A stretch of DNA of 64,000 bases from a virus (lineage: Duplodnaviria; Caudoviricetes), in the IMG/VR virus record IMGVR_UViG_2772190672_000001, positions 32,001 through 96,000 of that record; one strand, given 5' to 3'. The notes under the pieces are model-generated. The model was not told where the DNA came from, made no database searches, and saw nothing but the letters and a program-made list of their open reading frames with translations. Within the stretch, counting starts at the first letter, position 1; each line of letters begins with the position of its first letter. A program made the position numbers and the translations under genes. Below are positions 24,679 to 44,912 of this stretch, piece after piece.

Positions 24679-24727
24679 TTGACCAAACCTCCCGGTTTAC
24701 TCTCCCTGCACCGGTGGGTTTGGTCAA
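24679..24727. repeat. 49-bp element core, copy D
   Basis: TTGACCAAACC...GGTTTGGTCAA. Confidence 0.9.
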
Positions 24728-24750
24728 AGAAGCGGCAGGAAAGCCGCTGG

Positions 24751-25551
24751 TCAGGCCCGGCCCGCCAGCTCCGCCAGGGCCCGGAGGGCGGTAACCGCCG
24801 CAGCGAGGTCTCGGACGGCGATCACGTTGAGATCGAGGCCGAGGGCGCGGACGTCGTGAGCCTGACGGGCGGGGACGAGGACGGTGCGGTGGCCGTTGAT
24901 GTGCGCGGTGCGGGCCGCGTCGGTGACGCCGGGGAGACCGTTGATCGCCCCGTCGAAGCCGCGCAGCTCGCCGAGGAGCACGACCTGGCCGAGCACGCGG
25001 GAGTCGAGCTGGCCGCTGGCGGCGAGGACGGTGCAGGCTGTCGCGAGGTCGAGCGTGCTGGTCACGTTATGGTGGTCGTTGATCCGGACCGTCACCGCGC
25101 CGTCGGGGAAGGTGAAGCCGCTGCTGACGATCGCGCCGTGGATCCGCCCTTCCGGCGCGGTGTCGAAGGTGTGCCATCCGGTGATCCGGAAGCTGTCCGG
25201 GCCGGGCCAGACCGTGGCCTCGACCAGCACCATCCCGGTGCTGGCGGCGCCGTTGGTGTGGGCGGAGGTGGCGGCCAGGTTGCTGAGGTTGCTGGTCGGG
25301 GCGAGCGCGTAGTCGGGGTTGCCGGATGCCCGCCGCAGGCCGTCGATGAAGCTGTCGAGGGCCTCGGCCCCTGTGGCGCCCTGGATGATGTCCACCTGGC
25401 CGAGGGCGTCGCCCGCTTCGACGTCCAGCTCCTCGACCGCCCTGCGCCTGCGAATGAGGTCGGCCGGCGCGGGGGCGATGTCCCACAGGGTGTAGCTGGC
25501 GGCGTCCCTGCGGCCGACGATGATGAACTCGGGGGTGCGGGTGGTGATCAT
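24751..25551 (-). CDS. Second ChlI/ComM N-terminal-like domain protein
   Basis: RIHGAIVSSGF, LDLATA, LLGELRGFDG. Confidence 0.7.
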   Translation of the reverse strand: MITTRTPEFIIVGRRDAASYTLWDIAPAPADLIRRRRAVEELDVEAGDALGQVDIIQGATGAEALDSFIDGLRRASGNPDYALAPTSNLSNLAATSAHTNGAASTGMVLVEATVWPGPDSFRITGWHTFDTAPEGRIHGAIVSSGFTFPDGAVTVRINDHHNVTSTLDLATACTVLAASGQLDSRVLGQVVLLGELRGFDGAINGLPGVTDAARTAHINGHRTVLVPARQAHDVRALGLDLNVIAVRDLAAAVTALRALAELAGRA

Positions 25552-25658
25552 GGCTTTCTCCCTGGGGTGAGGTGGCGGTTCCGGGGCGGGCGGCGCGCAC
25601 CGGGCTCGGGGCCCGTCGCGCCGCCTGCGCCGGAGGCAGCCGCCCGGCCGCCCGGCCG

Positions 25659-25931
25659 TCAGGACTTGCGGCGGTTGATGGTGTGGAGGGTGACGCCCTC
25701 GGCGGCCAGGGCCCGGCAGATGTTGCCGCGCACCCACCCGCCCCAGCCGTCCGACTCGTACTCGGCGAGGAACTGGCGCCGCTTCGGGTGCGCCGCGTTC
25801 GGGCTGAACGTGGCAGCCAGCTCGTAGGCCAGGGTCCGGGTGTTCCACGGGCCCTCGAACAGCCCGTCGGAGATGTCGCTGTCCTCCAGGTCCCAGTACA
25901 GATGGAGGAGGGGGGTCCGGGTCTGGTCCAT
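25659..25931 (-). CDS. Small hypothetical protein
   Basis: GGAG RBS; first gene after element E. Confidence 0.7.
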   Translation of the reverse strand: MDQTRTPLLHLYWDLEDSDISDGLFEGPWNTRTLAYELAATFSPNAAHPKRRQFLAEYESDGWGGWVRGNICRALAAEGVTLHTINRRKS

Positions 25932-25979
25932 GTCTGGCGCTCCGTCCCTGATGGGTGGTGGTGTGTCCTGCCTTCATCT

Positions 25980-26028
25980 TTCCGCAAACAAGCCGGGATA
26001 ACCTCGCTATCCCGGCTGAATTGGTCAA
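25980..26028. repeat. 49-bp element core, copy E
   Basis: AGCCGGGATA-ACCTCGC-TATCCCGGCT inner stem, TTGGTCAA. Confidence 0.9.
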
Positions 26029-26050
26029 GGATTGTCAGGAAAGCCGCTGG

Positions 26051-27847
26051 TCAGGCGGCCAGGTCGTAGCGGTCGATCTCCTCGCCGGTGATGCACTCGG
26101 CGAGCATGCAGATCAGGACCTCCGAGACGTTCGGGGTGACCGCGTTGCCCAGCTGGCGCACCCGGTCGCGCTTCGAGCCCAGCACCACGTAGTCGTCGGC
26201 GAAGGCCATCGCGCGCTGGATCTCGTGCGGCTGGAGCATCCGGAACAGGACGTCTTCGATCTTGATGTCCCCCTGGACCAGGGCGAAGCGGTCACGGGTG
26301 GAGATCGCGCCGACGGGCTCGCTGACCGGGCGCGGGGTCCCGTTGCCGTAGTACGGGGCCAGGAAGGGTTCCCAGGTGACGAGGGACTGGTGGCCGGTGG
26401 TGGTGAGGGTCCGCATCGGCTCGGCCAGGTCGGTGCAGTGCTCGCCGCCGTCGCCGGTGGAGCCGTTGTTCCGCATCATCATGCCCGGCATCGGGACCGC
26501 GGCCAGGCCGTGGTGATTGCCGCTGGCGCAGACCGTCGCGAGCGGGTCGCTGATCGCGCGGACGTCGCTGCTGCCGCCCCGGATCTCGGTGATGAACGGC
26601 AGCCACGCGAGCCCGGCCTCGGCCCTGGCGGTCTGGGTCTGCATCGGCCCGTAGACCGTGCGGGCGTTCTTGCCTTCGCGGCCGTCGCACGGGACGAGCA
26701 GCGGCGGTACCGCCAGCGCGTCATTCTCGCGGGTGGTGCGGGTCGGCATCGGGTCGAGGAGGTCGGTGGCCGAGTCCCGCCAGGTGCCGCCGGTGGGCAC
26801 CATCAGCGGGCGGGCGAACTTGTCCAGCCCGGCCTGGATGCGCCGCATCGTCTTCTCGGCCAGCGGGGTCTTGCGGTCGCCGATCCGACCGCCCGCGATC
26901 GACCAGTCGATGGCCGCCGCCGCGGGGAGCGTCTCGGGTTCCACGATCTGGTGGCCACACTTCGTGTTCGGGCACCGGTAGTCGTACTGGCTCTTGTACC
27001 GGCCCATGTCGACGCCGGGCTTCCGGAAGACCTGCCGGGCCTTGACCATCTGGTCGCAGCCGGTGCAGAACGCTGAGGGGGCGAGCCACTTCTCGAAGTT
27101 CGGGGTGCGGCCGAGGCTCTGGTGCCAGTAGACCAGGTAGAGACGGTCGCGGGACTGCGGGGCGCGGTGCACCGAGCGCGGCTCGGCGTGCATCGAGTTC
27201 AGCGCGACCAGCCGGGTCCGGTAGCCCATCTTGTGGAACTCCGCGATCCAGCGGTCCCACTCGGCCCACTGCCGGACGTCGACCACGTTCTCGACCACGC
27301 CCGCCTTGACCAGGCCGCCGCGCTCGATTACGCCTCGCAGGTAGAGCGGGATCTCTTCCATCAGCGCCCGACTGGCCTCATCCTCCGCCGTCGGGCCGCT
27401 GTCCCTCTCGTCCTCCGTCTGGAACTTATCCGCCTCCAGGTCTGCGTACAGGTCGAGCAGGTCGCCCTGGACGGCCTTGGCGAAGTCCCGCTTTTTGCCC
27501 TGGGCAATGCTCCACCGAGTGCACTCGGGCGAGCCCCAGTGGATGTCGGTGATCGGCCAGGCCCAGACCGGGGCCTTGCGGATGTCGCCGATGTAGTGGG
27601 CGACGCCGGGGAAGTTCCGCTCGTGACTCTCGATCGCCCGCCGCCAGTGGTTCGCGGCCCGGGTCACCTTGACGTTCGGGACGGCGTCCGCGCCCTGGGT
27701 GGAGCCACCCGCCCCGCAGAACCAGTCCATGACCGACAGCTCGGTGCCGTCGTGCCTGTACGCCTTGGTTCGCCGGCGCAGGGCGTAGGTCTGGGCCGAG
27801 CTGGAGGCCGAGGCCATCGCGCGGGTGGTGGAGGAGATGTAGGGCAT
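26051..27847 (-). CDS. DNA (cytosine-5) methyltransferase
   Basis: FCGAGG (I), GSPEC (IV), VENV (VI), QSRDR (VIII), LGNAV (X). Confidence 0.92.
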   Translation of the reverse strand: MPYISSTTRAMASASSSAQTYALRRRTKAYRHDGTELSVMDWFCGAGGSTQGADAVPNVKVTRAANHWRRAIESHERNFPGVAHYIGDIRKAPVWAWPITDIHWGSPECTRWSIAQGKKRDFAKAVQGDLLDLYADLEADKFQTEDERDSGPTAEDEASRALMEEIPLYLRGVIERGGLVKAGVVENVVDVRQWAEWDRWIAEFHKMGYRTRLVALNSMHAEPRSVHRAPQSRDRLYLVYWHQSLGRTPNFEKWLAPSAFCTGCDQMVKARQVFRKPGVDMGRYKSQYDYRCPNTKCGHQIVEPETLPAAAAIDWSIAGGRIGDRKTPLAEKTMRRIQAGLDKFARPLMVPTGGTWRDSATDLLDPMPTRTTRENDALAVPPLLVPCDGREGKNARTVYGPMQTQTARAEAGLAWLPFITEIRGGSSDVRAISDPLATVCASGNHHGLAAVPMPGMMMRNNGSTGDGGEHCTDLAEPMRTLTTTGHQSLVTWEPFLAPYYGNGTPRPVSEPVGAISTRDRFALVQGDIKIEDVLFRMLQPHEIQRAMAFADDYVVLGSKRDRVRQLGNAVTPNVSEVLICMLAECITGEEIDRYDLAA

Positions 27848-27891
27848 TCGGTCCGTCCCTTCCGGGTGGGTGGGTGTGTCGTCCTCTTTCA

Positions 27892-27940
27892 TTGACCCCA
27901 CCCCTCGGGATAACCTCGTTATCCCGATGGGTTTGGTCAA
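27892..27940. repeat. 49-bp element core, copy F
   Basis: TTGACCCCACCCCTCGGGATAAC-CTC-GTTATCCCGATGGGTTTGGTCAA (23-bp arms, 3 mismatches). Confidence 0.95.
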
Positions 27941-27963
27941 AGAATCGTCAGTGAAGCCGCGGG

Positions 27964-28848
27964 TCAGATGCCGTCCGGCCGGAACGGGATCAGGGGGAAA
28001 AGGTCCCGGTCGAGCGCGTACCAGCCCCACTCGTGGCCGCCGATGGCGTACCGGCCGTCGGCGTTGGGGTGGAGGACCTCGACCGCCTGCTCGCGCCGCT
28101 CGCCGGCGAGGTGCATCCAGCAGGTGACGATGACGACCGCGTGCCGGGTGCGGTTGACCCTGCCGCTCAGGACGTGAACGGTGTCGATCGAGCCGTGCCC
28201 GTACCTGGCGGCGTCTCGCTGGGTGTCGGCGGCGATCCGGCGGACGGTGCGGAGGTCGAGCCAGGGCCGCACGTAGCCGTCGCGCTGGTCAGCGGGGTCG
28301 ATGAGCGCCGGGTAGTGGTCGCGGTCGTTGGCACACACCAGGACTTCGACCATCGAGCCGGGGGCGGCTTCCGGGGCGGCCGGGCTGGGCGGGTCGAGGG
28401 TGAGGGAGGCGGCCCGCATGAGGTCGAGGGTGAAGGCGGGTCGGCCGTAGCGGTCGGGCAGTTCGTCGCACAGTGGGCGCCAGACACCTCGGGTGTTGTC
28501 GTCCAGGTATGCCGTCCAGCCACTGAGGTCGTGCAGGGCGTTCCCGGCCTCGGTCTGGCCGACGTCGTCGGTGAAGGTGCGCTCGGCGCCGGCCGTCGTC
28601 CAGTAGCGGCCGGTGGGAAACAGCGAGTCCTCGCCTGCGACCAGTTCGAGGCGGGCGGCATCGAAGGGGGCGCCGGGCTGGTGGCCGGTGAGGATGTCGC
28701 GGACGGCCGCGGCGGTGACGACGAGCATGACGCGGCCGAGCTGCTCGTGCGCGGTCTGGTTGTCGTTCAGGGCCTGGTCGACGGCTGCGCCGAGCGCGCT
28801 GCTGGCGGGCAGTTCGTAGGCGGGGCGAGAAGGGGGCTGGCGGTCCAT
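27964..28848 (-). CDS. Hypothetical protein, shares a domain with 29879-30982
   Basis: IDTVHV...PNADGRYAIGGHEWGW. Confidence 0.75.
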   Translation of the reverse strand: MDRQPPSRPAYELPASSALGAAVDQALNDNQTAHEQLGRVMLVVTAAAVRDILTGHQPGAPFDAARLELVAGEDSLFPTGRYWTTAGAERTFTDDVGQTEAGNALHDLSGWTAYLDDNTRGVWRPLCDELPDRYGRPAFTLDLMRAASLTLDPPSPAAPEAAPGSMVEVLVCANDRDHYPALIDPADQRDGYVRPWLDLRTVRRIAADTQRDAARYGHGSIDTVHVLSGRVNRTRHAVVIVTCWMHLAGERREQAVEVLHPNADGRYAIGGHEWGWYALDRDLFPLIPFRPDGI

Positions 28849-28891
28849 GCCGGGTCCGTTCTGTGTGTGGTGGGTGTTGCATCCTCGATCA

Positions 28892-28940
28892 TTGACCCCA
28901 CCATCCGGGGTAACCTCGTTACCCCGGCCGATTTGGTCAA
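28892..28940. repeat. 49-bp element core, copy G
   Basis: CCGGGGTAAC-CTC-GTTACCCCGG; TTGACC/GGTCAA ends. Confidence 0.95.
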
Positions 28941-28962
28941 AGAAGCGTCAGGAAGTCGCTGG

Positions 28963-29850
28963 TCAGGCCGTGATGCCGTCGGCCAGGTACGAGCCACCGT
29001 CAGCCACACGCAGGGCGAATACCTCGGCCTTCGGGCCGCGCTCGGCGCGCAGGGCGCCGTGCCAGCGGTATCCGTCGAAGTCGGGCCGTCGGCCGCCTTC
29101 GTTCTGCCAGTGCAGCTGCCATCCGGGCCAACCCGGCTTGCTGGAGTCGCTCAGCCCGCCGGCGAACCCGAGCGAGCAGACGAGCAGCCGCAGCCCGACC
29201 ATGAACGCCTTGGAGTGCATGCGCACCTGGTTCCGCTCACGGTGCGGGGCGCCGTGGACGAGGCCCACGAGGAACGCGATCCGCAGCGTCTCGGGCATCG
29301 TCAGCGCCCAGGCCGGGAAGCGGCGTCCGGCCCCGTACTGGCCGAAGTGCTCGGCGAGCCAGTCGACCAGCTCGGGCCGCAGTGCCGCCGCGGCTGAGCC
29401 CTTGAGCCGGATCATGGCCCCGGCCGTGCGGAAGACGTCCACGGGGTCGGCGTCGGCGAGGGGGGCGGGCAGGTCGGGGATCGCCAGCGGATCCCCGAAG
29501 TGGAGGGGTGAGGCCAGCCGGTGTCGGTCGGTCAGGTCGCGGACCCTGGTCCAGCCCGCAGCTGACAGCTCACCGGCCGGGCCACCGTCCAGCAGGACGG
29601 GCGCGGTTCGCGCGTGGAACGGGTGGTCGGCCGTCGTGACGAGGCCGGTGGCGAGCGTGGCGCAGTGGACGCGGACAGTGTCGGCGATGGCGCTCATAGT
29701 CTCGGTGACCGGCTGCCACCGGCGCTCGTGGGTGAACACCTCATCCCCGGCGGTGACGGTTTCGATGGGGGTGAGGCCGCGCAGAGTCAGGATCATCGTT
29801 CCGGCGGCGAAGCCCTCGGGGGCGGGCTCCAGGGGGGTCTGGTTGCTCAT
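28963..29850 (-). CDS. Free-standing degenerate intein (Hint + LAGLIDADG-like remnant)
   Basis: GFAAGTMILT (block A, Cys to Gly), TADHPF (block B), AFLVGLVHG (block E-like), VFALRV..GSYLADG (block F/G without terminal HN). Confidence 0.7.
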   Translation of the reverse strand: MSNQTPLEPAPEGFAAGTMILTLRGLTPIETVTAGDEVFTHERRWQPVTETMSAIADTVRVHCATLATGLVTTADHPFHARTAPVLLDGGPAGELSAAGWTRVRDLTDRHRLASPLHFGDPLAIPDLPAPLADADPVDVFRTAGAMIRLKGSAAAALRPELVDWLAEHFGQYGAGRRFPAWALTMPETLRIAFLVGLVHGAPHRERNQVRMHSKAFMVGLRLLVCSLGFAGGLSDSSKPGWPGWQLHWQNEGGRRPDFDGYRWHGALRAERGPKAEVFALRVADGGSYLADGITA

Positions 29851-29878
29851 GTGGCGTCCTTGTCTCGTCGGGCGGGGG

Positions 29879-30982
29879 TCAGAGGGTGGGGAAGGTGATT
29901 CGGTAGACGTTGGCGGACCGCTCGTCCGGGATGTGCTCCCAGCCGGGTGCCGCCGCCAGGTCGGCCGGCTCGCTGCTGTCGATGGCGTGATGCAGGTAGG
30001 CGTCTGCGGCGCCGAGGGTCTCGGTGTCGAAGACGCCGCCGTCGTCGGCCGTGTCGAGCTCCGTGTCTCCGGCGTAGACCTGGACGATGTGGGGGCGGCC
30101 TTCGTGGATGTCGATCAGCGCCGAGGTCGCCGACGGGGCCAGCCGCCGCAGGGCGGCCGCGGCCGTCCAGCGGGCGATCTCCAGGGGTGCGGTCGGCTGG
30201 TGGTCGCGGGTGAGGCCGCACCAGCACCGCTCGTGCCAGTCGGAGTACCGGCCGCACACGCAGTTCCAGTGGGCGTAGCTCCAGCACCACTCCCAACCGC
30301 CGATGCTGTACCGGCCTTCGTCGTCGGGCTCGATGATGAGGGTGGACTGCTCGGCGCCCTCGTCCTCCATGTACGTCCAGGAGACCCGCAGGACGAACGC
30401 CAGCGGCTTGCCGTCGTGGTCCTTCGCGCCGCAGTCGATGACGTGCACGGTGTCGACGCCGTCGCCGTTGAACTCTTCGGCCAGCTGCTGGGTCTGGGCG
30501 GCCAGTTGGAGGGCGGCGTCCAGGGTGAAGCGGGGCGAGACGAAGCCGTTCCAGAGGTTGTGCGGGTCGACCTTGGCGTCGAGGGGGCCGAGGGTGTCGT
30601 CGATGCAGACCTTGGTGTCGACGGTGCGGAGGCGGGAGGCGATCCGGTAAATCTCGGCCTGCCGGTGCTCCCCCTCCCAGCTGTCGCCGTCGAAGTCGAG
30701 TTCGTCGGCCAGGGTCCGGGAGAGCTGCCGGTAGAGCGCTTTGCGGTGCGGGAGGCTGCCGTCCTCGCGGGCGGCCTGCCATGCCTTCATCCAGGCGTGC
30801 CTGTCGAAGCGGGCGGCGGGCGGCATGCCGGCGGCTGCTTGGAGGCAGACCCTGCGGTCGAGGTGGACGGTGGCGTTGGGGTCGCCGGTGGCCTGCATGG
30901 CGCGGGCCTGGGCGATCCGGGCCACGATGACGAGGGCTGCGGCCAGTTCGGTCTGGGTGACGTCTGGGGTCGTGCTGGTCAT
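29879..30982 (-). CDS. Hypothetical multidomain protein
   Basis: WNGFVSPRF...VDTVHV...PDDEGRYSIGGWEWCW; GAGAGG RBS. Confidence 0.75.
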   Translation of the reverse strand: MTSTTPDVTQTELAAALVIVARIAQARAMQATGDPNATVHLDRRVCLQAAAGMPPAARFDRHAWMKAWQAAREDGSLPHRKALYRQLSRTLADELDFDGDSWEGEHRQAEIYRIASRLRTVDTKVCIDDTLGPLDAKVDPHNLWNGFVSPRFTLDAALQLAAQTQQLAEEFNGDGVDTVHVIDCGAKDHDGKPLAFVLRVSWTYMEDEGAEQSTLIIEPDDEGRYSIGGWEWCWSYAHWNCVCGRYSDWHERCWCGLTRDHQPTAPLEIARWTAAAALRRLAPSATSALIDIHEGRPHIVQVYAGDTELDTADDGGVFDTETLGAADAYLHHAIDSSEPADLAAAPGWEHIPDERSANVYRITFPTL

Positions 30983-31049
30983 GACGGTGGTACCTCTCGT
31001 GGGGTGGATGGTGGGGGCTCCGCCGGGCGGGCGGGGCGCCGTGGGTGGT

Positions 31050-31346
31050 TCAGCCGGTGAAGAGGGCCAGCCACTCGTTCGCGCGGGCCGGGAGGCGCGT
31101 GTCCTTGCCCGCCCAGGCCATCTCGTCGTCGATCTGGCGGGCGAGCAGCTCGAACCGCTCGGGGGTGAAGTGCTCGCCCCGCTCCAGCGCCTGGGCCAGG
31201 GAGTGGGCCTTGATGGCGGCCGCCCGCATCGCTTCCTTCTCGCAGCCGAAGCCGAGGAGGTCGGCGCGGGCGCCGGCGACCGTGCCGTAGCCGGTCAGGG
31301 CCACGGCCGTTGCCTGGGCCTCGGTGGTGACGGTGATGGTGGCCAT
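31050..31346 (-). CDS. Small hypothetical protein
   Basis: GGGAG RBS; first gene after element H. Confidence 0.7.
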   Translation of the reverse strand: MATITVTTEAQATAVALTGYGTVAGARADLLGFGCEKEAMRAAAIKAHSLAQALERGEHFTPERFELLARQIDDEMAWAGKDTRLPARANEWLALFTG

Positions 31347-31388
31347 GCCGGGCTCCCTGGGTGATGGTGGGTGGTGACACCTTCTTCA

Positions 31389-31437
31389 TTGACCCCACCT
31401 GCCGGGATAACCTCGATATCCCGGTTGATTTGGTCAG
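31389..31437. repeat. 49-bp element core, copy H
   Basis: CCGGGATA-ACCTCGA-TATCCCGG; GATTTGGTCAG. Confidence 0.92.
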
Positions 31438-31461
31438 GGAATCGACAATGAAGCCGCTGGT

Positions 31462-32289
31462 TCAGGCCATCGCGAACAGGTCGAGCTGGAACGGCTGGCG
31501 CTGGTGCCAGCCGTGGGTGGGGAGGGTGCCGTCAGGGTCGGCATCCAGGCACAGGAGGACGGTCCTGACGTCCGCCCCGGACGGCTTGAACGCGTCGTCG
31601 GGCAGCGGGACGATCTCGCCCTCGTTGTCGGCGATCAGCTTGCGGAACTCCTGCGCGGGCCGGTCGAGGTGCCAGGTGATCGACTCGGGCATGACGGCCA
31701 CGAGGGTGCCACCGTCCTTCAGGAAGCCCAGGGCGTGCATGACGTGGGCGGTGGCGTTGCCGAAGGGCGGGTTCATCAGGATGCGGTCGTACGGCTCATC
31801 GATGGCGAGCGGGTCGAGGTCGAGGAAGTCGCCCTGGACGACCTGGCGGGCGATGCCGAGCTCCCGGAGGACGTGGGCTCGGCGGGGGTCGATCTCGACG
31901 CAGTCCACGATGCCCATCTCCTCGGCGGCCCGCTTGGCGAGCGAGCCGACACCGGCCGACGGTTCCAGCACCGTGTGGCCGACTCGGATCGAGGCGTGCT
32001 CCAGCATGTCAAACACCACGGCGGGCGGGGTCGGGTACCAGCCCTGTTCGAACTTCGACGGCCACTCGCCGGCCGCGAGGCAGTCGCGCATGAACTGCTC
32101 CACCGGGAAGGGGAAGACGTGGGCTCGAACCGCCTTGCGGCCGTCCCACCGGCCGCCAATGTCCTTGAGCATCTGGTTCATCCGGCCGTACAGAGCGCGG
32201 TCGAGCTCGAAGGGGACGGCTACGCGGTCGCCGCTGATGATCGTGCGGTAGTCGGTGAGGACGGTGAGGACGTCGGCCGGGATCTGCAT
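31462..32289 (-). CDS. N6-adenine-type (class I SAM) DNA methyltransferase
   Basis: WYPTP, VLEPSAGVG, ILMNPPF; C-terminal QLDLF. Confidence 0.85.
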   Translation of the reverse strand: MQIPADVLTVLTDYRTIISGDRVAVPFELDRALYGRMNQMLKDIGGRWDGRKAVRAHVFPFPVEQFMRDCLAAGEWPSKFEQGWYPTPPAVVFDMLEHASIRVGHTVLEPSAGVGSLAKRAAEEMGIVDCVEIDPRRAHVLRELGIARQVVQGDFLDLDPLAIDEPYDRILMNPPFGNATAHVMHALGFLKDGGTLVAVMPESITWHLDRPAQEFRKLIADNEGEIVPLPDDAFKPSGADVRTVLLCLDADPDGTLPTHGWHQRQPFQLDLFAMA

Positions 32290-32366
32290 CGGTGCTCCTT
32301 CGCGCGTGCGGGCAGAACTGGGGGCGCCCCGCCACTGAGGGCGGGGCGCTGAGGAGGTGGGGCGGG

Positions 32367-33939: not shown

Positions 33940-33957
33940 GCCGGTTTCCCTCCTGGT

Positions 33958-37596: not shown

Positions 37597-37652
37597 GATT
37601 CCTCCTTCGGAGATGCGGGCGGCCCGGCCCCCGCGGGGGCCGGGCCGGGCGG

Positions 37653-37910: not shown

Positions 37911-37951
37911 GTCCGGCTCCCTGGGGGTGGTGAGTGGTGACACCTTCTTCA

Positions 37952-38000
37952 TTGACCCCATCCATCGGGTTAACCTCGTTAGCCCGATGGATTTGGTCAA
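37952..38000. repeat. 49-bp element core, copy K
   Basis: ATCCATCGGGTTAAC-CTC-GTTAGCCCGATGGAT. Confidence 0.95.
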
Positions 38001-38022
38001 AAGGTCGGCAAGTATAGGCAGG

Positions 38023-38547
38023 TCAGCGGCCGTCGAGACTCGCCAGCTGGCGGACTAGCCCCCAGCCGTCGCGCCAGAAGGAACGGCGGGTGTTGTCGTA
38101 CGCCTCCTGCCACTCGGGCGGGACCCGGCCGTCACCTCGGGTGTACGTGCCGGTGAGGCCGTCGTACCGGCCCAACAGCTCGGTGGCGTCGTCAGCGAGT
38201 TCATCGAGGCCGCGCCGCCGTTCATGCTCGGGACGCAGATCGACGTGCCCGAGCTCGTGCTGCCCCTGAGGCAGACCCTCGTACGACTCGTCGGCGACCA
38301 CGTAGCAGTCGGGCGTCTCCTCGCCTGCCATGTGCCAGGCGAGCGCTGCCGCCCACGCCTTCTCCGTCGAGCAGGCGTCGAGCACGTACCGGGTGGCGCT
38401 GCCGCTGCGGCCGCTGCAGTCGTGCCGCTCGGGGCCTCGGACGGTCACGGTGAACGGCCGCTCCGCCTGCCGGTAGTCGTCGGGCAGATTGCCGTACAGG
38501 GGCTCGCCGCCGTAGCGCTCGGGCGTCTCCAGGTACTTCCCGGTCAT
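38023..38547 (-). CDS. Hypothetical protein
   Basis: GAAGGA RBS + ATG at 38547. Confidence 0.65.
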   Translation of the reverse strand: MTGKYLETPERYGGEPLYGNLPDDYRQAERPFTVTVRGPERHDCSGRSGSATRYVLDACSTEKAWAAALAWHMAGEETPDCYVVADESYEGLPQGQHELGHVDLRPEHERRRGLDELADDATELLGRYDGLTGTYTRGDGRVPPEWQEAYDNTRRSFWRDGWGLVRQLASLDGR

Positions 38548-38575
38548 CGGGGTCCTTCCTTCGCCGGTGTAGGGG

Positions 38576-38728
38576 TGTCCGGATGCTGTCCGGACGGAGT
38601 CCGGGTGCTGTCCGGACGGAGTCCGGGTGCTGTCCGGACACTGCGGGGCCGCTACCAGATGAGGGCGGCGTGACCTGCGCGGACACTGTCCGGACATCCC
38701 GTCCGGACGCTGTCCGGCCGGGTGTCCG
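38576..38728. repeat. Densest cluster of (T)GTCCGGAC(A) palindromic repeats, including a tandem ~23-bp duplication
   Basis: tgctgtccggacggagtccggg repeated; further clusters near 4872-4980, 39210-39263, 50192-50310, 61692-61842, 62326-62345. Confidence 0.85.
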
Positions 38729-39182
38729 CGTGCAGAACGATCGGGTTGCGCCGCCAACTGTCGTCCACCCACAGATGCACCCAGGGCCGCCCGGAGATCG
38801 AGCGCCCGTTCATCGGTGGGACCGGGCGGCCGGGGAGGACCCTGCGCCCGCTCCATGCGCCGTGGAACCAGATCCGGCCGGCCACGTTGGTGTAGCGCAT
38901 GCCGACCAGCTCGGAGAGGTCGAGCCCTTCGAGGGAGAGGTCCCGCAGCTCCTCGGCGAGCGAGCGGAGGGTCCAGGTGGACGTCCAGCCGAGCCGTTCG
39001 GCGCTGGCCTCGCGGAGCTGGCGCAGTTCCAGCGGGGTGAGCGGCTCGTCCTCGTAGCGGCGGTGGATCGCGTCGTCCAGCGCGCGGAAGAGGTGCCGGG
39101 GGGCGGCCTGGGTGTCGGTGTCGGGGAGGTAGGTGGCGGCGGCGGCGTAGACGCCCCGGATGGTGGTTTCGGTGACCTGCAT
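38652..39182 (-). CDS. Hypothetical protein
   Basis: GAAAGG RBS + ATG. Confidence 0.65.
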   Translation of the reverse strand: MQVTETTIRGVYAAAATYLPDTDTQAAPRHLFRALDDAIHRRYEDEPLTPLELRQLREASAERLGWTSTWTLRSLAEELRDLSLEGLDLSELVGMRYTNVAGRIWFHGAWSGRRVLPGRPVPPMNGRSISGRPWVHLWVDDSWRRNPIVLHADTRPDSVRTGCPDSVRAGHAALIW

Positions 39183-39268
39183 GGCGGCCTTTCGTGGGGG
39201 CGGAGGAGGGTCCGGACGGCGGCCGCTGAGCTGGGCGGACACTGTCCGGACGCCGTCCGGACAGTGGG

Positions 39269-39898
39269 TCAGGCGAAGTTGGTCTGGTCGGTGTGCTCGC
39301 CGCCGCGCTTCCAGATGAGCGCGCGGACGTGGGCCGCGGGGACCTCGTAGAAGAGGCGGCCGGGGAGCGGCTGGCCGTTGAGGCGGGTCAGCTGGAGTTC
39401 GCGCTCCTCCTGCTCCCAGGCGTCATCGGCGGGCGGTTCGATCGCCTCGGGCAGGTAGACGTCCACGTAGCCGCCGCCGGCGTCGGCCTTGATGGCGATG
39501 ACCTCGCCGTCGGCCAGGCGGATGCGGAGCATCGGGCGGCGGCCGGTGCCGGTGCCGTCGGTGACGGCCTGGTCGAAGCGGTCGGTGACGGGGGCGCTCT
39601 GGTCGGCGTGCTCGCCGCCGTGCTCCTCGATGAGCGTGCGGACTTTGGCCACGGCCACCTCGTAGAAGTAGCGGCCGTCGACCGGCTCGTCGCCGGCGGT
39701 CAGCCACGCCTCCCACGGGTCTTCCAGCTCCCAGCTCTCGCCGTCGGGGGTGCCGATCTCGTTCGGCAGGTAGACGTCCACGGTGGCCGCACAGGAGGCG
39801 GCCTTGATGCTGATGACCTGGCCGTCGGCGAGGCGGAGGTTGTAGTGGACGTCGTTGGTGCCGTCGGTGAGGAACTGCTCGAAGTGGGTGGCGGTCAT
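39269..39898 (-). CDS. Hypothetical protein made of two tandem homologous domains
   Basis: LRLADGQVISIKA..VDVYLP..FYEV..VR.LI..HGGEH.DQ repeated twice. Confidence 0.8.
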   Translation of the reverse strand: MTATHFEQFLTDGTNDVHYNLRLADGQVISIKAASCAATVDVYLPNEIGTPDGESWELEDPWEAWLTAGDEPVDGRYFYEVAVAKVRTLIEEHGGEHADQSAPVTDRFDQAVTDGTGTGRRPMLRIRLADGEVIAIKADAGGGYVDVYLPEAIEPPADDAWEQEERELQLTRLNGQPLPGRLFYEVPAAHVRALIWKRGGEHTDQTNFA

Positions 39899-39943
39899 GG
39901 CTGCTGCTCCGATCTGGGGTGGTGGGTGGTGACACCTTCTTCA

Positions 39944-39992
39944 CTGACCCCACCCATCGGGGTAACCTCATTACCCCGATGGATTTGGTCAA
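39944..39992. repeat. 49-bp element core, copy L
   Basis: CCATCGGGGTAA-CCTCA-TTACCCCGATGG. Confidence 0.95.
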
Positions 39993-40015
39993 GAAGTCGA
40001 CAAGGAAGCCGCCGG

Positions 40016-40630
40016 TCAGACCGAGGTGGCGGCGGCGGTGAAGGCGGCGTCCAGGGACTGGACGAAGTCCGCGCCGACGGCCGCGAGGTGGGCGGCCTGG
40101 CGAGCATCGGCCTGCTCGGCATTCTTGGCGTGGGCGGCCAGGCCGCACGAGCACCAGGCGGTCGTGCGGTCGCTGGATTCCATGCGCTGATGCTTGGCGG
40201 CCACCAGGCTGAGGCGAGCAGACAGGGTGAGCCGCAGGTGCTCGTTGTCGCCGTTGAGGAGGAAGCCCTGCGCGAGGAGCCGGTCGGCCTGGCTGGGCGG
40301 AATTTCGTACGAGCCGGCCGCGATGACGGGCATCGTGTACCGCTCGGAGTCGACGAGCCGGACGGCGGGGACGGAGGCGATGACCCGCAGGTTGGCCAAG
40401 TCGTAGTCGCTGGGGTCGGCGGGGACCCGCGGGGTGAGGGTGATGGAGCGCACGACCCGGGCACGGGTGGCGGGGTCGATCCGACGCCAGCGGATGACGG
40501 CGCCGCCGGTGCGCTGGGGCTCGATGGCGTAGCCGCGGTTACAGGCCCGGCGCAGGAGGAGCAGGGCGTGGGGCTCACTGACGCTGCCGGTGGTGATGCT
40601 GCTGCCGCTGTCGACGGTCTCGGTGAACAT
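40016..40630 (-). CDS. Hypothetical protein with C-terminal CSCG...H motif
   Basis: AAGGAG RBS + ATG. Confidence 0.7.
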   Translation of the reverse strand: MFTETVDSGSSITTGSVSEPHALLLLRRACNRGYAIEPQRTGGAVIRWRRIDPATRARVVRSITLTPRVPADPSDYDLANLRVIASVPAVRLVDSERYTMPVIAAGSYEIPPSQADRLLAQGFLLNGDNEHLRLTLSARLSLVAAKHQRMESSDRTTAWCSCGLAAHAKNAEQADARQAAHLAAVGADFVQSLDAAFTAAATSV

Positions 40631-40708
40631 AGTGGCCGCTCCTTGCTGTCGGGGTGGGCCCGGCCGGGTCCGTGGCCGAGCCCTGGGTGGTGTGTCGTAC
40701 ATTCATCC

Positions 40709-40757
40709 TTGACCAAGCCCAACCGGTTAACCTCCCTACACCGGCCGATTTGGTCAA
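40709..40757. repeat. 49-bp element core, copy M
   Basis: TTGACCAA...CCGGTTAAC-CTC...CCGG..ATTTGGTCAA. Confidence 0.9.
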
Positions 40758-40780
40758 GGGATCGACAAGGAAGCTGCTGG

Positions 40781-41164
40781 TCAGCGGTCCAGCTTGCCGA
40801 ACATGACGTCGGCCACGGACGGGCCCGGCCTGCCCGAGCCGGGCAGCTTCCCGTACAGCGCTCCCTCGCCGGGGCCGCGCTCGTCGTCCGGCTCGGGCTG
40901 CCGCTCCGCCTGCTCGGGCCCGGCCTCCTCGACCGGCGCGCCGTGGCGGGCGAACAGGGCCTTCAGCTTGTCGTCGTCCTCCAGCAGCTCGCGCACGACC
41001 TTGCCGGTGGCCTCGCTGTGTTCGTCGCAGGTGGCGAGCCCGTAGCCGCTGCTGGCGTACACCAGCAGGTACGCCTCGACGCTCTCACCGCCCAGCAGGT
41101 GGCGGACGCACTGCATCGGGGTGCTGATGCGGTGCTCGTAGGTGCGGATCCAGTTGATGTTCAT
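40781..41164 (-). CDS. Hypothetical protein
   Basis: GAAGGGA RBS; high GC3. Confidence 0.7.
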   Translation of the reverse strand: MNINWIRTYEHRISTPMQCVRHLLGGESVEAYLLVYASSGYGLATCDEHSEATGKVVRELLEDDDKLKALFARHGAPVEEAGPEQAERQPEPDDERGPGEGALYGKLPGSGRPGPSVADVMFGKLDR

Positions 41165-42807: not shown

Positions 42808-43161
42808 TCAGCTGGCCAGCGCGATCATGTGCGCGGCGATTCGGTGCTTGCAGTCGCACTTCGACCGGAGTCCGGCCGGGCAGGTGCAGGCGGAGTGGGT
42901 GGTGCGGTAGGCGGTGCTGCCGTCGCTGCTGACCGCGAGGAACACGCGGTTCTTGCCGGTGTCGCGGAGGTGGATGATCCCGCCCTGTTCCAGCAACTCG
43001 ACCGCCCGCTCGACCAGGTGGGTCTTGTAGCGGCGGGTGATCTGCTCGGAGCGTCCGGCCTTGCGCACCATCCGCCTGCACTTGGGCCCGAGACCGTCGG
43101 GCGAGGTGTTGCGGAGCCGCGTGTGGCATCGCGTGCACCGGGTCTCCGGCTTGTTGTCCAT
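42808..43161 (-). CDS. Zinc-finger protein with SWIM domain
   Basis: CTRC...GLGPKC N-terminus; CTCPAG....CKH (SWIM). Confidence 0.8.
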   Translation of the reverse strand: MDNKPETRCTRCHTRLRNTSPDGLGPKCRRMVRKAGRSEQITRRYKTHLVERAVELLEQGGIIHLRDTGKNRVFLAVSSDGSTAYRTTHSACTCPAGLRSKCDCKHRIAAHMIALAS

Positions 43162-43202
43162 GGCGGCTCCCTTGGGGTGGGTGGTGTGTCGTGCATTCAT
43201 CA

Positions 43203-43251
43203 TTGACCGAATAATCCGGGATTACCGTGTTATCCTGGTTTATTTGGTCAA
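43203..43251. repeat. 49-bp element core, copy N
   Basis: TTGACCGAATAA...GGGATTAC-CGT-GTTATCC...TTATTTGGTCAA. Confidence 0.9.
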
Positions 43252-43304
43252 AGAATCTTCAAGGGATGAGTACTCCGCCGCAGGTCAGCGGCGGGGCGCC
43301 CACC

Positions 43305-44069
43305 TCAGTCGGTCAGCTCGGCGATCAGCACCGTGGCGTTGTCCACGTACTTCCACTCGCCCTCCGGCCGGCTCTTGCGGGACGTCTCCACGGCCAGGTC
43401 CACGAAGCCCTGCGCGATGCCCCGCAGGTCACCGTCGTCCAGCTCCACGTACAGGTCATGCCCGGCCTCGTCGTGCGGCTCGTACGCGCCGTCGCTGGCC
43501 AGGACAAGGCGGTCGCCGTCGACCAGCGGGCGGGCGGCGGCCTCGATCGCCGGGTGGCCGTAGATGTCCAGGGCTTCCTGGTCGGTGTAGACGGCCCCCA
43601 GGTAGGAGGTGATGACGTTGCGGCTGCCGCCCTCGGGGTTGGTGGCGGCGGGCGGGAGGACCCGGCGCTCGTTGTGGTCGTCGGTCAGCCGGTAGGCGAT
43701 GCCGCGCCGGAGCAGGTAGGCGCGGGAGTCCCCGGCCCAGGCCAGGCCGAGGGAACGGCCGGGGGCGGCGACCGCGACGACGGCGGCCGCGCTGGGCATG
43801 TACCGCCGGGTGTACGGGTCCTGACGGTCGGGGTCGGCCGCGATCTCCTCGTAGAGGGAGCGCAGGGCGCTCTCGGCGTCGCCGCGGCGGGCGGCCCGGA
43901 TGGCGAGGCGGGCGGCCGTCCGGCGGGTCCAGTCGCGGATCGCCTCGGAGGTGCCGATGCCGTCGAGGACCACGTAGGCGCGGGTGCCGTCGGGGGCGGT
44001 ACGGACGGCTGCCGCGTCGCACTGGAGGCCCCTGCCGCCGGTGTTCTGGGCGGTCGCGTAACTGCGCAT
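43305..44069 (-). CDS. PP2C-family Ser/Thr phosphatase
   Basis: VVLDGIG, AWAGDSRAY, LTDDH, LASDG, DNAT. Confidence 0.9.
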   Translation of the reverse strand: MRSYATAQNTGGRGLQCDAAAVRTAPDGTRAYVVLDGIGTSEAIRDWTRRTAARLAIRAARRGDAESALRSLYEEIAADPDRQDPYTRRYMPSAAAVVAVAAPGRSLGLAWAGDSRAYLLRRGIAYRLTDDHNERRVLPPAATNPEGGSRNVITSYLGAVYTDQEALDIYGHPAIEAAARPLVDGDRLVLASDGAYEPHDEAGHDLYVELDDGDLRGIAQGFVDLAVETSRKSRPEGEWKYVDNATVLIAELTD

Positions 44070-44142
44070 GGATCGTTCTCCGTTCAGTGAGGGGTGAGGG
44101 GGCGCCGCGCGGCCGGGTGGCCGCGCGGCGCCGTCGGCTCGG

Positions 44143-44631
44143 TCAGGCGCGCTCGCCGGCGGGGCGGACGCAGGTCTCGTGGGTGTGGCAGTTGCACTTC
44201 CCGCAGCCCGCGCACATCTGCCCGGCCTCCAACCCGCAAGGGCCGCAGCCGCCGGTCGCGTCCAGCTCGGCGTCGTCGAGCGCACAGGTCAGGTCGGCGG
44301 CTGCGGCCAGACTGAAGCGGGGGCGGGGTTTGCACGAGCCGTCGCAGGTCTCGGGGCCACCGAGGAGCACGCCGTCCTCGCCGGCGTGACCGTCGCAGCC
44401 CGCGGGGTCTCGGACGATCACGGTGACGTCGTGGACCTTGAGCGTGGCCTCGCCACGGATGGCCCAGTCCGAGGCGATGCCGCCGACGATGGCGATCATC
44501 TCGCGGTCGTTGGTGGTGGGCTTGCCCTGAGCGCGGGCGACGCCCCAGACGATGTTCCGCAGCTCGCCCTGGCGGTCGGCGAAGTAGGTGCGGTCCTCGA
44601 TGCCGGGGTGCTCGATGGTGACTTCGAACAT
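44143..44631 (-). CDS. Hypothetical protein with Cys-rich C-terminus
   Basis: GAAGGAG RBS; CGPCG..CAGCGKCNCH. Confidence 0.7.
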   Translation of the reverse strand: MFEVTIEHPGIEDRTYFADRQGELRNIVWGVARAQGKPTTNDREMIAIVGGIASDWAIRGEATLKVHDVTVIVRDPAGCDGHAGEDGVLLGGPETCDGSCKPRPRFSLAAAADLTCALDDAELDATGGCGPCGLEAGQMCAGCGKCNCHTHETCVRPAGERA

Positions 44632-44669
44632 GGGCTGCTCCTTCGTGGGTGGGTGTTCCTTGCCCATCT

Positions 44670-44719
44670 TGGACCATGTGGACCAGGATTGTGGACGTTA
44701 TCCCAAATAAGTTGGTCGA
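44670..44719. repeat. Degenerate element core, copy O (50 bp)
   Basis: TGGACC...GTTATCCC..TTGGTCGA; upstream TGA 23 nt away as in other copies. Confidence 0.55.
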
Positions 44720-44741
44720 AAAGTGGTGGGTTGACGGCCGT

Positions 44742-44912
44742 TCAGGCGCCCAGGTCGCAGCGCTCGCAGAAGACGATGCCGCTGCCGTCGATGAGGCAGA
44801 CCAGTTCGCGCCCGCAGTCGCACATGCCGAGGTCGGGCAGTTCCGGCAGCGGCTGGGTGATCCGGATGGCCGGAATGCTGACGGTGGTGGCCGCAATGAT
44901 GGGGGCGCTCAT
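44742..44912 (-). CDS. Small zinc-ribbon protein, first gene of the array
   Basis: CDCG...FCERC; GGGAGGG RBS; resembles 24417-24635. Confidence 0.65.
   Translation of the reverse strand: MSAPIIAATTVSIPAIRITQPLPELPDLGMCDCGRELVCLIDGSGIVFCERCDLGA

Follow-up and report, generated by a model that had tools for sequence, protein, structure and literature searches.

Repeated promoter-like hairpin units in a Streptomyces-type prophage whose outermost box doubles as the stop codon of upstream genes

The repeat array and its copies

The window, i.e., the entire 64,000-nucleotide stretch of DNA that was analyzed, is part of a 111-kb (111,280-bp) Streptomyces-type siphovirus prophage (G000), which, like the related prophage G001, is an integrated provirus with an integrase. 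A nhmmer search of the whole 111,280-bp genome returned fifteen copies of an intergenic unit of approximately 125 nt, all located on the gene (minus) strand and all confined to positions 20017–44762 of the window, with none elsewhere in this genome. The array is held by a 25-kb block of accessory genes encoding ParB-like proteins, i.e., a protein with ParB_N and HTH domains (20170–21333) and a ParB-HTH protein (32367–32762), together with DNA methylases, DUF3560, and ChlI-like and PP2C-like proteins. Copies of the unit are also present in seven further Streptomycetaceae loci, giving at least eight loci with the window included, almost all of them in Streptomyces genomes.

Read along the gene strand, the unit opens with the hexamer CTGACC (box 1), continues through a conserved upstream module of approximately 20 nt that includes a second TGAC box (box 2), and then enters a 49-nt palindrome. 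In ten of the fifteen copies the TGA of box 1 is at the same time the stop codon of the upstream gene, 23–27 nt before the palindrome. This stop lies within CTGACC in copy 4 (24633–24760; stop 24751–24753), copy 5 (25929–26060; stop of a C5 methylase gene, 26051–26053), copy 6 (27845–27973; 27964–27966), copy 7 (28846–28972; 28963–28965), copy 10 (34730–34858; 34849–34851), copy 11 (37908–38032; 38023–38025), copy 12 (39896–40025; 40016–40018) and copy 13 (40671–40790; 40781–40783), and within CTGAAC in copy 8 (31344–31471; 31462–31464) and in copy 15 (44629–44751; 44742–44744), the most degenerate of all. The ten pairs of palindrome end and stop position listed in a preliminary description of this DNA were all correct, the minus-strand ORFs ending at the lower coordinate of each stop, and so was its statement that the stop is invariably TGA, eight times in CTGACC and twice in CTGAAC.

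The five remaining copies depart from this arrangement in different ways. Nhmmer and alignment place copy 1 at 20039–20179; it is degenerate, with a 13-nt insertion and a GC-rich hairpin in the upstream module, and the ParB gene upstream of it (20170–21333) stops in CTGACG at the aligned column. Copy 2 (21331–21461) retains CTGACC, while the TAG stop of the upstream gene is 50 nt earlier. The ORF at 21917–22333 passes through the CTGACC of copy 3 (21814–21942) and ends 16 nt further on, at the TGA belonging to box 2, which confirms the read-through previously described for this copy (there, copy C). Box 1 is missing from copy 9 (32760–32892), where the upstream gene ends on a TAG 31 nt earlier, and copy 14 (43159–43294) has a 10-nt insertion and retains CTGACC, the PP2C-like gene stopping 20 nt upstream. 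The CTGACC of copy 14 is located in the loop of a small GC hairpin.

Promoter-like core and hairpin

The outer arms of the palindrome are TTGACCAAA and TTTGGTCAA, and its inner right arm starts with GTTATCC. The left arm forms a -35-like TTGACC, and exactly 17 nt downstream the loop presents a conserved, strand-asymmetric GAGGTT that would constitute a weak -10 (A at position 2, T at position 6). Conservation of TTGACCAAA and of GAGGTTA, at this 17-nt spacing, reaches 80% or more among canonical copies. The 3' part of the unit comprises a C/A-rich leader and a GGAG-type ribosome site followed by ATG, and in the alignment every unit of the window shows a -35-like box and a ribosome site, with the ATG at a constant distance. 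A stricter consensus promoter scan returned no site within positions 20000–39999. Taken on their sequence features, the units look like they carry their own promoters. In some copies GCGGTT or AGAGTT stands in place of the -10-like hexamer, and in some a GC-rich, terminator-like hairpin substitutes for the upstream module.

The palindrome is predicted to fold into a hairpin with a 23-bp stem and a 3-nt loop (mean MFE -19.6 kcal/mol), the mean z-score of the core being -3.6 as against -0.6 and 0.0 for the flanks. In the stem alignment, 74% of cells are paired; covariation is modest, with 31 double changes where 17.5 would be expected. Half of the copies have A-G mismatches at stem positions 7–8, and G-T pairs (50) are similar in number to A-C pairs (38), and these counts do not establish that an RNA hairpin forms on the gene strand.

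Position of upstream stop codons

When the window was scored together with four further loci (five genomes, 58 copies), the upstream stop was found 23–27 nt before the -35-like box in 33 copies, closer to it in four (at -10 and -14) and further away in 21 (-39 to -78), and none of the 58 palindromes is entered by an ORF. The rule is seen again in three further loci beyond these five genomes. Fourteen unrelated upstream gene families terminate in box 1 in these five genomes; families rather than copies are the fair counting unit, since copies in different genomes are partly orthologous. If ORFs entered the unit in a random frame, and thus used this stop with a probability of 1/3 (random-frame null), the 14 of 17 families observed would not be expected (p = 4.7e-5), and a uniform-position null gives p ~5e-10. 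The placement of stops in box 1 is therefore beyond chance. Outside the array TGA accounts for 83% of stops, CC follows 30% of TGA stops, and CTGACC ends 13 of 95 genes. At four or more different array positions, box 1 is retained in copies where the stop lies elsewhere.

The preliminary description had cautioned that TGA is the dominant stop in high-GC genomes and that compaction could push genes against a binding site, and had named as refuting its proposal that random models of compact, TGA-ending genes reproduce the overlap. Dominant TGA usage combined with compaction against a functional site is the better explanation, although a pure random-frame model fails to reproduce the pattern. Compaction alone may not account for a stop exactly at box 1, because gaps of 80–120 nt separate array genes without the repeat, and 60–125 nt lie between stops and promoters in the syntenic array of Streptomyces phage TurkishDelight. 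On the other hand, in a C5-methylase homologue located outside any array, homology reaches to four codons before the stop of the window gene, so that hardly any spare sequence separates the conserved end of the protein from box 1.

The spacing of stops also bears on whether the unit acts mainly at the RNA level, its 49-nt hairpin being a terminator, an attenuator, a 3'-end stabilizer or an RNase III-type site at which a long polycistronic transcript is processed. Stops would then be kept at least ~14 nt, ideally ~25 nt, upstream, because a terminating ribosome must not melt the hairpin. The stability of the core, the covariation in the variable part of the stem, the absence of ORFs from the palindrome with the closest stops at -10 and -14, and the GC-rich hairpin that replaces the upstream module in some copies are consistent with such a role, and the stem-loops of the PeSL units of T4-type phages act as terminators (PMC2839356). 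However, the gene strand has no U-tract after the hairpin, a terminator scan flags the opposite strand only, and G-T pairs are not in excess over A-C pairs. Furthermore, conservation is highest in TTGACC and in the loop GAGGTTA, which are sequence-specific, strand-asymmetric and spaced as in a promoter, and one exact stop position is left unexplained where any distance of 14 nt or more would serve. A predominantly RNA-level role is thus considered rather unlikely, although it can coexist with promoter function.

Exchange of units among related prophages

Gene order is collinear across five genomes. From one related prophage to the next, repeat-plus-gene units may be present, missing or duplicated, and individual genes have been inserted immediately ahead of CTGACC. 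For example, three single-gene indels between the window and G001 adjoin the C of CTGACC, and one inserted gene lies between two CTGACC copies; the gene at 40781–41164, which ends in copy 13, is absent from G001, and the gene preceding it likewise ends in CTGACC. One extra gene is found directly upstream of copy 11 in G001, and copy 10 is, relative to G001, a chimera of the two copies that flank an extra G001 cassette. In six informative three-way comparisons, indels are flanked by units with chimeric units at the joints, and two of the switch points fall in the left palindrome arm, two at box 2 or ahead of it, and the last two in the core, the right arm or the UTR. They thus range from just after the stop, where one chimeric copy switches right after the TGA, to the 5' UTR.

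The preliminary description had suggested that CTGACC may be a recombination or insertion junction, at which homology would drop exactly at CTGA. The repeats do delimit exchangeable cassettes, as that proposal implied, while a defined junction of the integron type is unsupported given that breakpoints scatter over the unit, an outcome that the description itself had named as refuting; breakpoints 'exactly at CTGA' are in any case trivially expected, because unrelated coding sequence meets the conserved unit there. The search for a recombinase co-occurring with the repeat was equally negative. The single tyrosine recombinase is the ordinary terminal prophage integrase (109475–111280 of the prophage genome, ~33 kb from the array), which scores 44.8 bits against TIGR02249 (cut-off 265) and 32.8 against PRK15417 (cut-off 435). 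The genome encodes no serine recombinase, and PF01797 (Y1/HUH transposase) has no match in G000 or G001. The phage does encode RecT.

Integron cassettes are usually promoterless, and the gene of a cassette often ends inside the inverse core of its attC site. The array resembles such a system, in which a recombinase would excise and insert cassettes at CTGACC, in having unidirectional gene cassettes separated by imperfect palindromes, stops at a fixed position, indels that adjoin the C of CTGACC, a chimera that switches directly after TGA, and a tyrosine recombinase in the genome. Unlike integrons, however, it has collinear rather than variable gene order, scattered crossovers instead of a fixed one, units that look promoter-bearing, and an integrase that is generic, terminal and far below the integron-integrase cut-offs, with neither a serine recombinase nor a Y1 transposase beside it. 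CTGACC is 26 nt outside the palindrome and not in the position of an inverse core (RYYYAAC), an R''/R' core pair is lacking, and the inner arms depart from the core GTTRRRY, the right one starting with GTTATCC. Moreover, paralogous units of the array are only 58% identical, so cassette turnover is not recent. A site-specific system is accordingly very unlikely, being already largely refuted by the scattered switch points, the collinearity and the lack of an integron integrase.

Positional orthologues, by comparison, are mostly 71–88% identical, and each copy is far nearer to its positional orthologue in another genome than to any paralogue; the copies are old and positionally stable. This argues against a MITE- or REP-like mobile element inserted beside stop codons by an HUH or other transposase, even though the units are palindromic, dispersed, intergenic and in a single orientation, recalling REP/BIME elements just after stops. 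Such elements come with a cognate Y1_Tnp/RAYT and dispersed, near-identical copies, whereas here Y1_Tnp is absent from both phages, the copies are restricted to one 25-kb block, and the unit includes a ribosome site at a fixed distance from the next ATG. Of all explanations weighed, this one is extremely improbable.

Two syntenic arrays have other cores. The circular plasmid pSITFR-21c is syntenic and has box 1 and the TTTCC-rich module in common with the window, its core being unrelated. The syntenic array of TurkishDelight contains at least seven canonical sigma-70-type promoters (TTGAC, 17–18 nt, -10) overlapped by a 16-bp palindrome, which supports reading such arrays as promoter/operator arrays.

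Candidate regulators

At the head of the array, a divergent gene on the plus strand (45078–45689) encodes a 203-residue protein with two tandem helix-rich, HTH-like modules. Genes at the same position encode related proteins in pSITFR-21c (33% identity) and in TurkishDelight (gp102, annotated as HTH; 27% identity), and 37 Streptomyces-type homologues were found in public collections. The AF2 model has a pLDDT of 85, and matches to HTH domains are local only. The region between this gene and the first array gene contains a perfect 17-bp palindrome, read directly from the DNA (45004–45020; 7-3-7, half-sites GTCAAA/TTTGAC). Position and weak HTH signals in three lineages make this protein a candidate regulator of the repeated palindromes.

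Alternatively, a ParB-like protein of the array might bind the fifteen dyads as ParB/KorB-type sites, centromere-like or as global operators, box 1 being the edge of the nucleoprotein site. KorB of plasmid RK2 offers a precedent: its operator OB is a 13-bp palindrome, a dozen or so of which are situated at or near promoters on a replicon that encodes a ParB-family protein. The array likewise encodes two proteins of this family, its dyads are dispersed and all near gene starts, and the syntenic relative pSITFR-21c is a circular plasmid. However, G000 and G001 are integrated, and a 49-nt dyad with a variable, covarying center is unlike both OB and 16-bp parS sites. ParB-like genes are present, too, in relatives whose palindromes differ, which does not point to a specific pairing of ParB and palindrome, and the conserved divergent gene fits a regulator role as well or better. 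A link between the ParB-like proteins and the dyads is thus conjecture, and quite unlikely.

Discussion

The explanation that we favor as the probable one is that the unit is a composite promoter/operator hairpin with a conserved upstream module, whose outermost box doubles as a stop codon through compaction and co-inheritance, and that recombination between units shuffles cassettes. Each unit would head a small transcription unit in the accessory block, with the palindrome probably serving as operator for a phage regulator, for which the product of 45078–45689 is the candidate, and, as a hairpin, probably also attenuating read-through from the upstream gene. The upstream module, at about -36 to -63, would occupy the position of an UP or activator site. 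An upstream gene overlapping this module would constrain both, and spare spacer would be lost, so that the gene end is pushed against the outermost box and its TGA comes to be used as the stop. Recombination between units would be homologous and may be aided by the phage RecT; as a crossover inside a unit lets each gene keep its own box 1, the arrangement would be inherited whenever a cassette is gained, lost or duplicated.

A different role for the module itself is conceivable. The ~27-nt segment comprising box 1, a GCGG- and TTTCC-rich stretch, and box 2 is conserved even between lineages with unrelated promoter/operator cores, and it supplies the stop to many unrelated genes. It might be a signal that acts in cis and is dedicated to marking gene ends or cassette boundaries in a widespread Streptomyces prophage group, although we regard this reading as unlikely. 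Such a signal could link translation termination in the upstream gene with how active the following promoter or hairpin is. Alternatively, it could offer new genes a preferred point of entry into the array, as an actinophage counterpart of attC that operates without a dedicated integrase.

The composite promoter/operator reading may be set against several known phage systems. Stoperators of mycobacteriophage L5 resemble the units of the window as regulatory sites present in many copies in an actinobacteriophage, in short intergenic spaces and in an orientation tied to the direction of transcription. Brown et al., in 1997, are said to have noted that some L5 sites overlap start or stop codons. 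The unit differs in its length of ~125 nt, its 49-nt dyad, its restriction to one block and its apparent promoter, while stoperators of L5 and other Cluster A phages are short (13 bp), asymmetric, genome-wide sites for the monomeric immunity repressor (PMC9283540). In Cluster O mycobacteriophages, a 17-bp dyad repeat occurs more than 30 times, mostly between ORFs, and one gene indel is flanked by this repeat and attributed to homologous recombination (PMC4351075). This dyad has the same 7-3-7 architecture as the palindrome at 45004–45020, but its sequence is short and invariant, and, as far as described, it has neither associated promoter-like boxes nor a constant position relative to stop codons.

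By comparison of features, the closest known analogue is the PeSL (promoter-early stem-loop) of T4-type phages (Arbiol et al. 2010, PMC2839356; Comeau et al. 2014, PMC4122927), which starts with the stop codon of the upstream gene and has a stem-loop between -35 and -10 (PMC2839356). Both are composite units dispersed in one orientation through a plastic accessory region, ahead of small genes of unknown function; both open with the upstream stop and combine sigma-70-like -35/-10 elements, putative in the window, with a stem-loop between or around them; and both flank indels between related phages, with crossovers at varied positions inside the unit. The window units indeed have a stable stem-loop, start at an upstream stop between accessory ORFs and flank indels with chimeric units. 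They are, in contrast, unrelated in sequence to PeSLs and belong to a temperate siphovirus of high-GC Streptomyces rather than to a T4-like myovirus; their upstream module is a conserved boxed sequence instead of an AT-rich tract, the stop falls on one exact triplet, and the palindrome, at 49 nt, is long, its conserved outer arms being suggestive of an operator. Members of the PeSL class show measurable promoter and terminator activity and give rise to cassette mini-circles, properties that are at most putative for the unit described here.

As it occurs in at least eight Streptomycetaceae loci and the gene at the array head has 37 homologues, the unit marks a widespread family of Streptomyces prophages. 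It organizes a 25-kb block of methylases, ParB-like proteins, DUF3560 and other accessory genes, with a suspected counter-defense role, into individually headed cassettes, and its embedded stops warn annotators that the 3' ends of genes overlap regulatory units. Should the units prove to be promoters controlled by a single regulator, they would provide ready co-regulated promoter parts, naturally graded, for a high-GC host, and would allow a timing class to be predicted for dozens of functionally uncharacterized genes. They would also represent a second, phylogenetically remote case of promoter/stem-loop cassettes driving the shuffling of phage genes, so far documented mainly for T4-type phages.

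Organization of the prophage and its repeat-punctuated gene block

The window covers bases 32001-96000 of a single contig of 111,280 bp that is classed as a provirus; its G+C content is 65-75% (2-kb windows), and nearly all of its genes, as called by a GC3-based script, lie on the minus strand. PHROGs matches include an endolysin, a minor tail protein, a tape measure protein, a major head protein, a portal and a large terminase, and by capsid protein the closest public phage is the Streptomyces phage TurkishDelight (67% identity across 76% of the protein). In the direction of transcription, the integrase is followed by early genes including recT, a membrane-protein operon, the repeat-punctuated block (window 20-45 kb), a tRNA-Arg gene, and the terminase, structural and lysis genes. 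The products of the block comprise a ParB, two ChlI-like proteins, a C5 methylase, an N6-type methylase, two DUF3560 proteins, and ParB-HTH, Hint-domain and PP2C-like proteins, as well as many further proteins without an assigned family.

Several of these genes have individual peculiarities. The Hint-domain protein (28963-29850, minus strand) is free-standing and has no visible exteins, while the gene at 39269-39898 contains a tandem duplication of ~315 nt with 75-81% identity (39283-39837, minus strand). A QLDLFA-x-A C-terminus is common to the N6-type methylase-like protein (31462-32289, minus strand) and a 915-aa DUF3560 protein (34849-37596, minus strand), and the same QLDLF tail occurs in a third family in the Streptomyces genome L072. 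QLDLF fits the canonical beta sliding-clamp binding pentapeptide. The sequence that three copies share upstream of CTGA is this C-terminal peptide and not an extension of the repeat.

Anatomy of the repeat unit

A profile made from nine unambiguous copies identified exactly 15 copies genome-wide, all on the gene strand and all located at window 20017-44762. The 5' part of the unit consists of CTGACC (box 1), GCGG and a TTYCC stretch; a TGAC box (box 2) sits 16 nt past box 1, and the left arm, TTGACCAAA, 11 nt past box 2. The stem comprises 23 bp with a 3-nt loop, its right end reads TTTGGTCAA or GGGGTCAA, and it is followed by a conserved TGATGAA stretch, a C/A-rich leader, a GGAG-type ribosome site and an ATG. 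Folding of the core is far better than in shuffles (mean z -3.6), and that of the flanks is not. Of the stem cells, 74% are paired, and double-sided stem changes number 31 against 17.5 in column shuffles, with none of 500 shuffles reaching 31, although plain sequence conservation accounts for much of the stem symmetry.

Among canonical-length copies, conservation peaks at the left arm and at a strand-asymmetric GAGGTTA, which starts exactly 17 nt beyond TTGACC. Judged from sequence, this spacing is the geometry of a putative -35 box with a weak -10 hexamer (A at position 2, T at position 6). A more stringent consensus promoter/terminator scan called no promoter, and its terminator-like matches were confined to the antisense strand at a frequency no higher than in shuffles. 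On average no conserved RNA hairpin was found around CTGACC (z -0.6); about a fifth of the copies, including those with GC-rich insertions, do fold well there. Searches against Rfam returned the tRNA and one sub-threshold chance match over a repeat. The left arm has some likeness to rRNA boxA antiterminator sequences, a candidate that was discarded as the motif is missing from related lineages.

Just 3' of the palindrome, ~55-65 nt past the left arm, all repeat copies carry a conserved GACAC/GTGTC pentamer (e.g., window 24655-24675), which is present in both unit subtypes and also in the unit of the plasmid-prophage pSITFR-21c; GACAC is also the motif ascribed to WhiA, a developmental regulator of Streptomyces. 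Outside the array, an isolated CTGACCTGCGGTTATCCCGG in the window 53837 region (genome 85837) resembles a fusion of box 1 with the inner right arm of a unit and may be the relic of a copy.

Distribution of the unit

An exact-pattern scan combined with a protein-anchored scan located the unit in seven further Streptomycetaceae loci: G001, a 118,918-bp provirus of Streptomyces sp. Act143; three further Streptomyces genomes (L072, L073 and L074); and three loci found via the protein encoded at the head of the array (L097, which is Actinacidiphila reveromycinica, L098 and L099). The exact-pattern scan of IMG/VR returned 48 stretches, mostly due to chance, with G001 as the one true relative. Neither the array nor a single repeat matched any public phage by megablast or blastn, and no description of such an array in Streptomyces phages was found in the literature. 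The plasmid search yielded methylase-level matches only, yet pointed to the syntenic pSITFR-21c.

Many upstream genes end on box 1

The preliminary description had placed the TGA stops of upstream genes at a fixed position in the repeat, and all ten of its pairs of core end and stop agree with the ORF calls; in the copy described as being read through, the ORF indeed passes box 1 and stops on the TGA of box 2. Scoring was possible for 58 copies in the five genomes with the best coverage; in 33 of them the upstream stop falls in box 1, between -23 and -27 relative to the -35-like box. Four stops lie nearer, two at -10 (box 2) and two at -14, where a deletion of 11-12 nt joins the stop to box 2, while 21 lie further upstream; in none of the 58 copies does an ORF enter the palindrome.

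Box 1 provides the stop of 14 unrelated upstream gene families. Had each ORF merely continued to whichever in-frame stop of the unit came first, box 1, box 2 and the deep part of the stem would each be expected to hold a third of the ends. As copies from different genomes are non-independent, the count was made by family; 14 of 17 were observed in box 1 (p = 4.7e-5), so that the random-frame model is rejected and the stop pattern is real. Box 1 is also a favoured stop context of the genome, since outside the array TGA makes up 83% of stops, CC follows 30% of TGA stops, and CTGACC ends 13 of 95 genes.

Box 1 marks the edge of an upstream module

At no fewer than four different positions in the array, copies keep box 1 even though the gene stops before reaching it; in the window, two copies retain CTGACC though the gene ends 20 or 50 nt before it, one copy lacks box 1 and another carries an insertion. 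Box 1 and the TTTCC-rich stretch are, moreover, common to the window units and the syntenic array of pSITFR-21c (L004 21965-31887), whose units retain CTGACCTGC and the TTTCC-rich module at their 5' edge, whereas the core is otherwise unrelated, with a KpnI-like palindrome ahead of a TAGTGT -10 that sits between TTAGT and ACTAA arms. Of about five cases in that array, only two have the annotated stop at box 1; one unit of the array sits within an annotated 1015-aa 'ParB' CDS that may be a mis-fused annotation. That box 1 might be a third half-site of the dyad is a reading weakened by pSITFR-21c, which has box 1 though its core is without TGACC arms.

Relative to the presumed start, box 1 lies at about -57 to -62, corresponding to the distal end of an UP-element/activator region. 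It can be lost: in L072 (~14600-14640) and L073 (~17630-17670) the methylase stop is joined to box 2 by the 11-12-nt deletions and the unit survives, indicating that the CC of box 1 and the TTTCC stretch are dispensable for unit retention. From these comparisons we conclude that box 1 forms the outer boundary of an upstream module that is functional.

Crossover points are scattered and the unit copies are old

An integron-like role, with CTGACC as a recombination or insertion junction, had previously been proposed for the stop-containing box. Gene-family order is collinear in the five genomes, which differ by repeat-plus-gene units that are present, absent or duplicated, and by single repeat-less genes that are inserted or lost. 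Homology between the window and G001 is interrupted at about nine places. One of these breaks represents an entire cassette between two units, while three fall at the C of CTGACC (21936, 38026 and 40784), each being the gain or loss of a single gene immediately upstream of a unit. These three exact breaks are no evidence for a junction, since it is necessarily at the stop that a conserved unit meets the unrelated coding sequence next to it.

Crossovers were mapped by comparing a single unit in one genome with two units flanking extra genes in another, using informative sites. The six comparisons placed the switch near the left arm (T1 and T8), between the stop and box 2 (T2), at box 2 (T9), or in the core, right arm or leader (T4 and T7), and this scatter across the unit argues against CTGACC as a fixed crossover; it is the outcome expected of homologous exchange between diverged repeats. 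Junctions are likewise scattered in the mini-circles formed at the promoter-early stem-loop (PeSL) of T4-type phages (PMC2839356). The numerous paralogues within the array (ParB-HTH, DUF3560, ChlI-like, and families 17, 20 and 21) are expected from unequal exchange between dispersed repeats. Paralogous copies in the window have a mean identity of 58%, and positional orthologues in the window and G001 are mostly 71-88% identical, the three most degenerate copies being lower; the copies are thus old, stable in place and held by selection on the boxes, and are neither recently mobile nor homogenised.

The search for a recombinase associated with the repeat likewise gave no support to an integron-like system. 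Each phage encodes one tyrosine recombinase, at the prophage end, which NCBIfam classes as generic and which scores far under the integron-integrase cut-offs; neither phage has a serine recombinase or a Y1 transposase, and RecT is phage-encoded. Nor did homology to a gene outside the arrays drop exactly at CTGA: a methylase from an unrelated Streptomyces plasmid, 68% identical to the window gene, ceases to be homologous four codons short of the latter's stop, where a tail of its own begins that leads to a TAA stop and a GC hairpin of the classical kind. The array methylase therefore has almost no slack after the end of the conserved protein.

The array-head gene and equivalent arrays in other lineages

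The sole plus-strand gene at the array head (45078-45689) encodes a 203-aa protein of two tandem, helix-rich modules of ~85 aa. It has 37 homologues, nearly all from Streptomyces and including single-module forms of ~113 aa. In three lineages, the array is headed by a divergent gene whose small product consists of two HTH-like modules in tandem; the window product is 33% and 27% identical to its counterparts, of which that of TurkishDelight is annotated as HTH. A conserved TTTAYC-type box and an AAGACT-type hexamer lie on the 5' side of the gene, the hexamer 6-7 nt before the ATG, and suggest a leaderless transcript.

At the same place, the window, pSITFR-21c and TurkishDelight arrays carry lineage-specific promoter-plus-palindrome units, the latter two arrays using entirely different repeats. 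The syntenic block of TurkishDelight (L096 30478-42789) contains at least seven copies of a clear promoter, with TTGAC, a spacing of 17-18 nt, a TAnnnT-type hexamer and a 16-bp palindrome covering the -35 and spacer; annotated stops lie 3 to ~125 nt upstream of the promoter, at no fixed position. All genomes with an array-head protein at least 60% identical to that of the window carry TTGACCAAA and TTTGGTCAA arms, while the palindromes of the two distant lineages differ from this type. This correspondence, observed across three lineages, fits the protein and palindrome as a putative operator-regulator pair, although the structural model of the protein (pLDDT 85) finds local winged-HTH matches only. 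The structure search with this protein gave local winged-HTH-like matches and no global match (best E 0.24), and the protein atlas no usable match.

The divergent control region also contains a perfect 7-3-7 palindrome (45004-45020) with GTCAAA/TTTGAC half-sites, a layout shared with the 17-bp dyad repeats that Cluster O mycobacteriophages carry (PMC4351075). Directly past the array-head gene, a perfect 24-nt inverted repeat with a 5-nt spacer (45699-45751) is probably a bidirectional terminator shielding the array from the membrane-protein operon.

A model for the unit

We infer promoter, operator, terminator and regulator roles for the units and the array-head gene. Each unit would be a promoter with an overlapping dyad operator; by forming a hairpin in read-through RNA, this dyad may attenuate transcription that enters from upstream. 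The architecture of the PeSL is essentially that of this proposed unit: the order given in its figure legend, i.e., upstream stop codon, upstream tract, -35, stem-loop and -10, matches (PMC2839356).

Compaction alone leaves unexplained why the stop falls on one exact triplet in 14 families despite gaps of 80-120 nt elsewhere in the block. This exactness would allow the junction between stop and module a specific role, which we nevertheless consider improbable. Under the proposed model, the upstream module would belong to the promoter and coding sequence would be barred from it; as surplus spacer is lost, the first triplet of the module would become the stop. Since crossovers fall inside the unit, a gene and its box 1 would move together.
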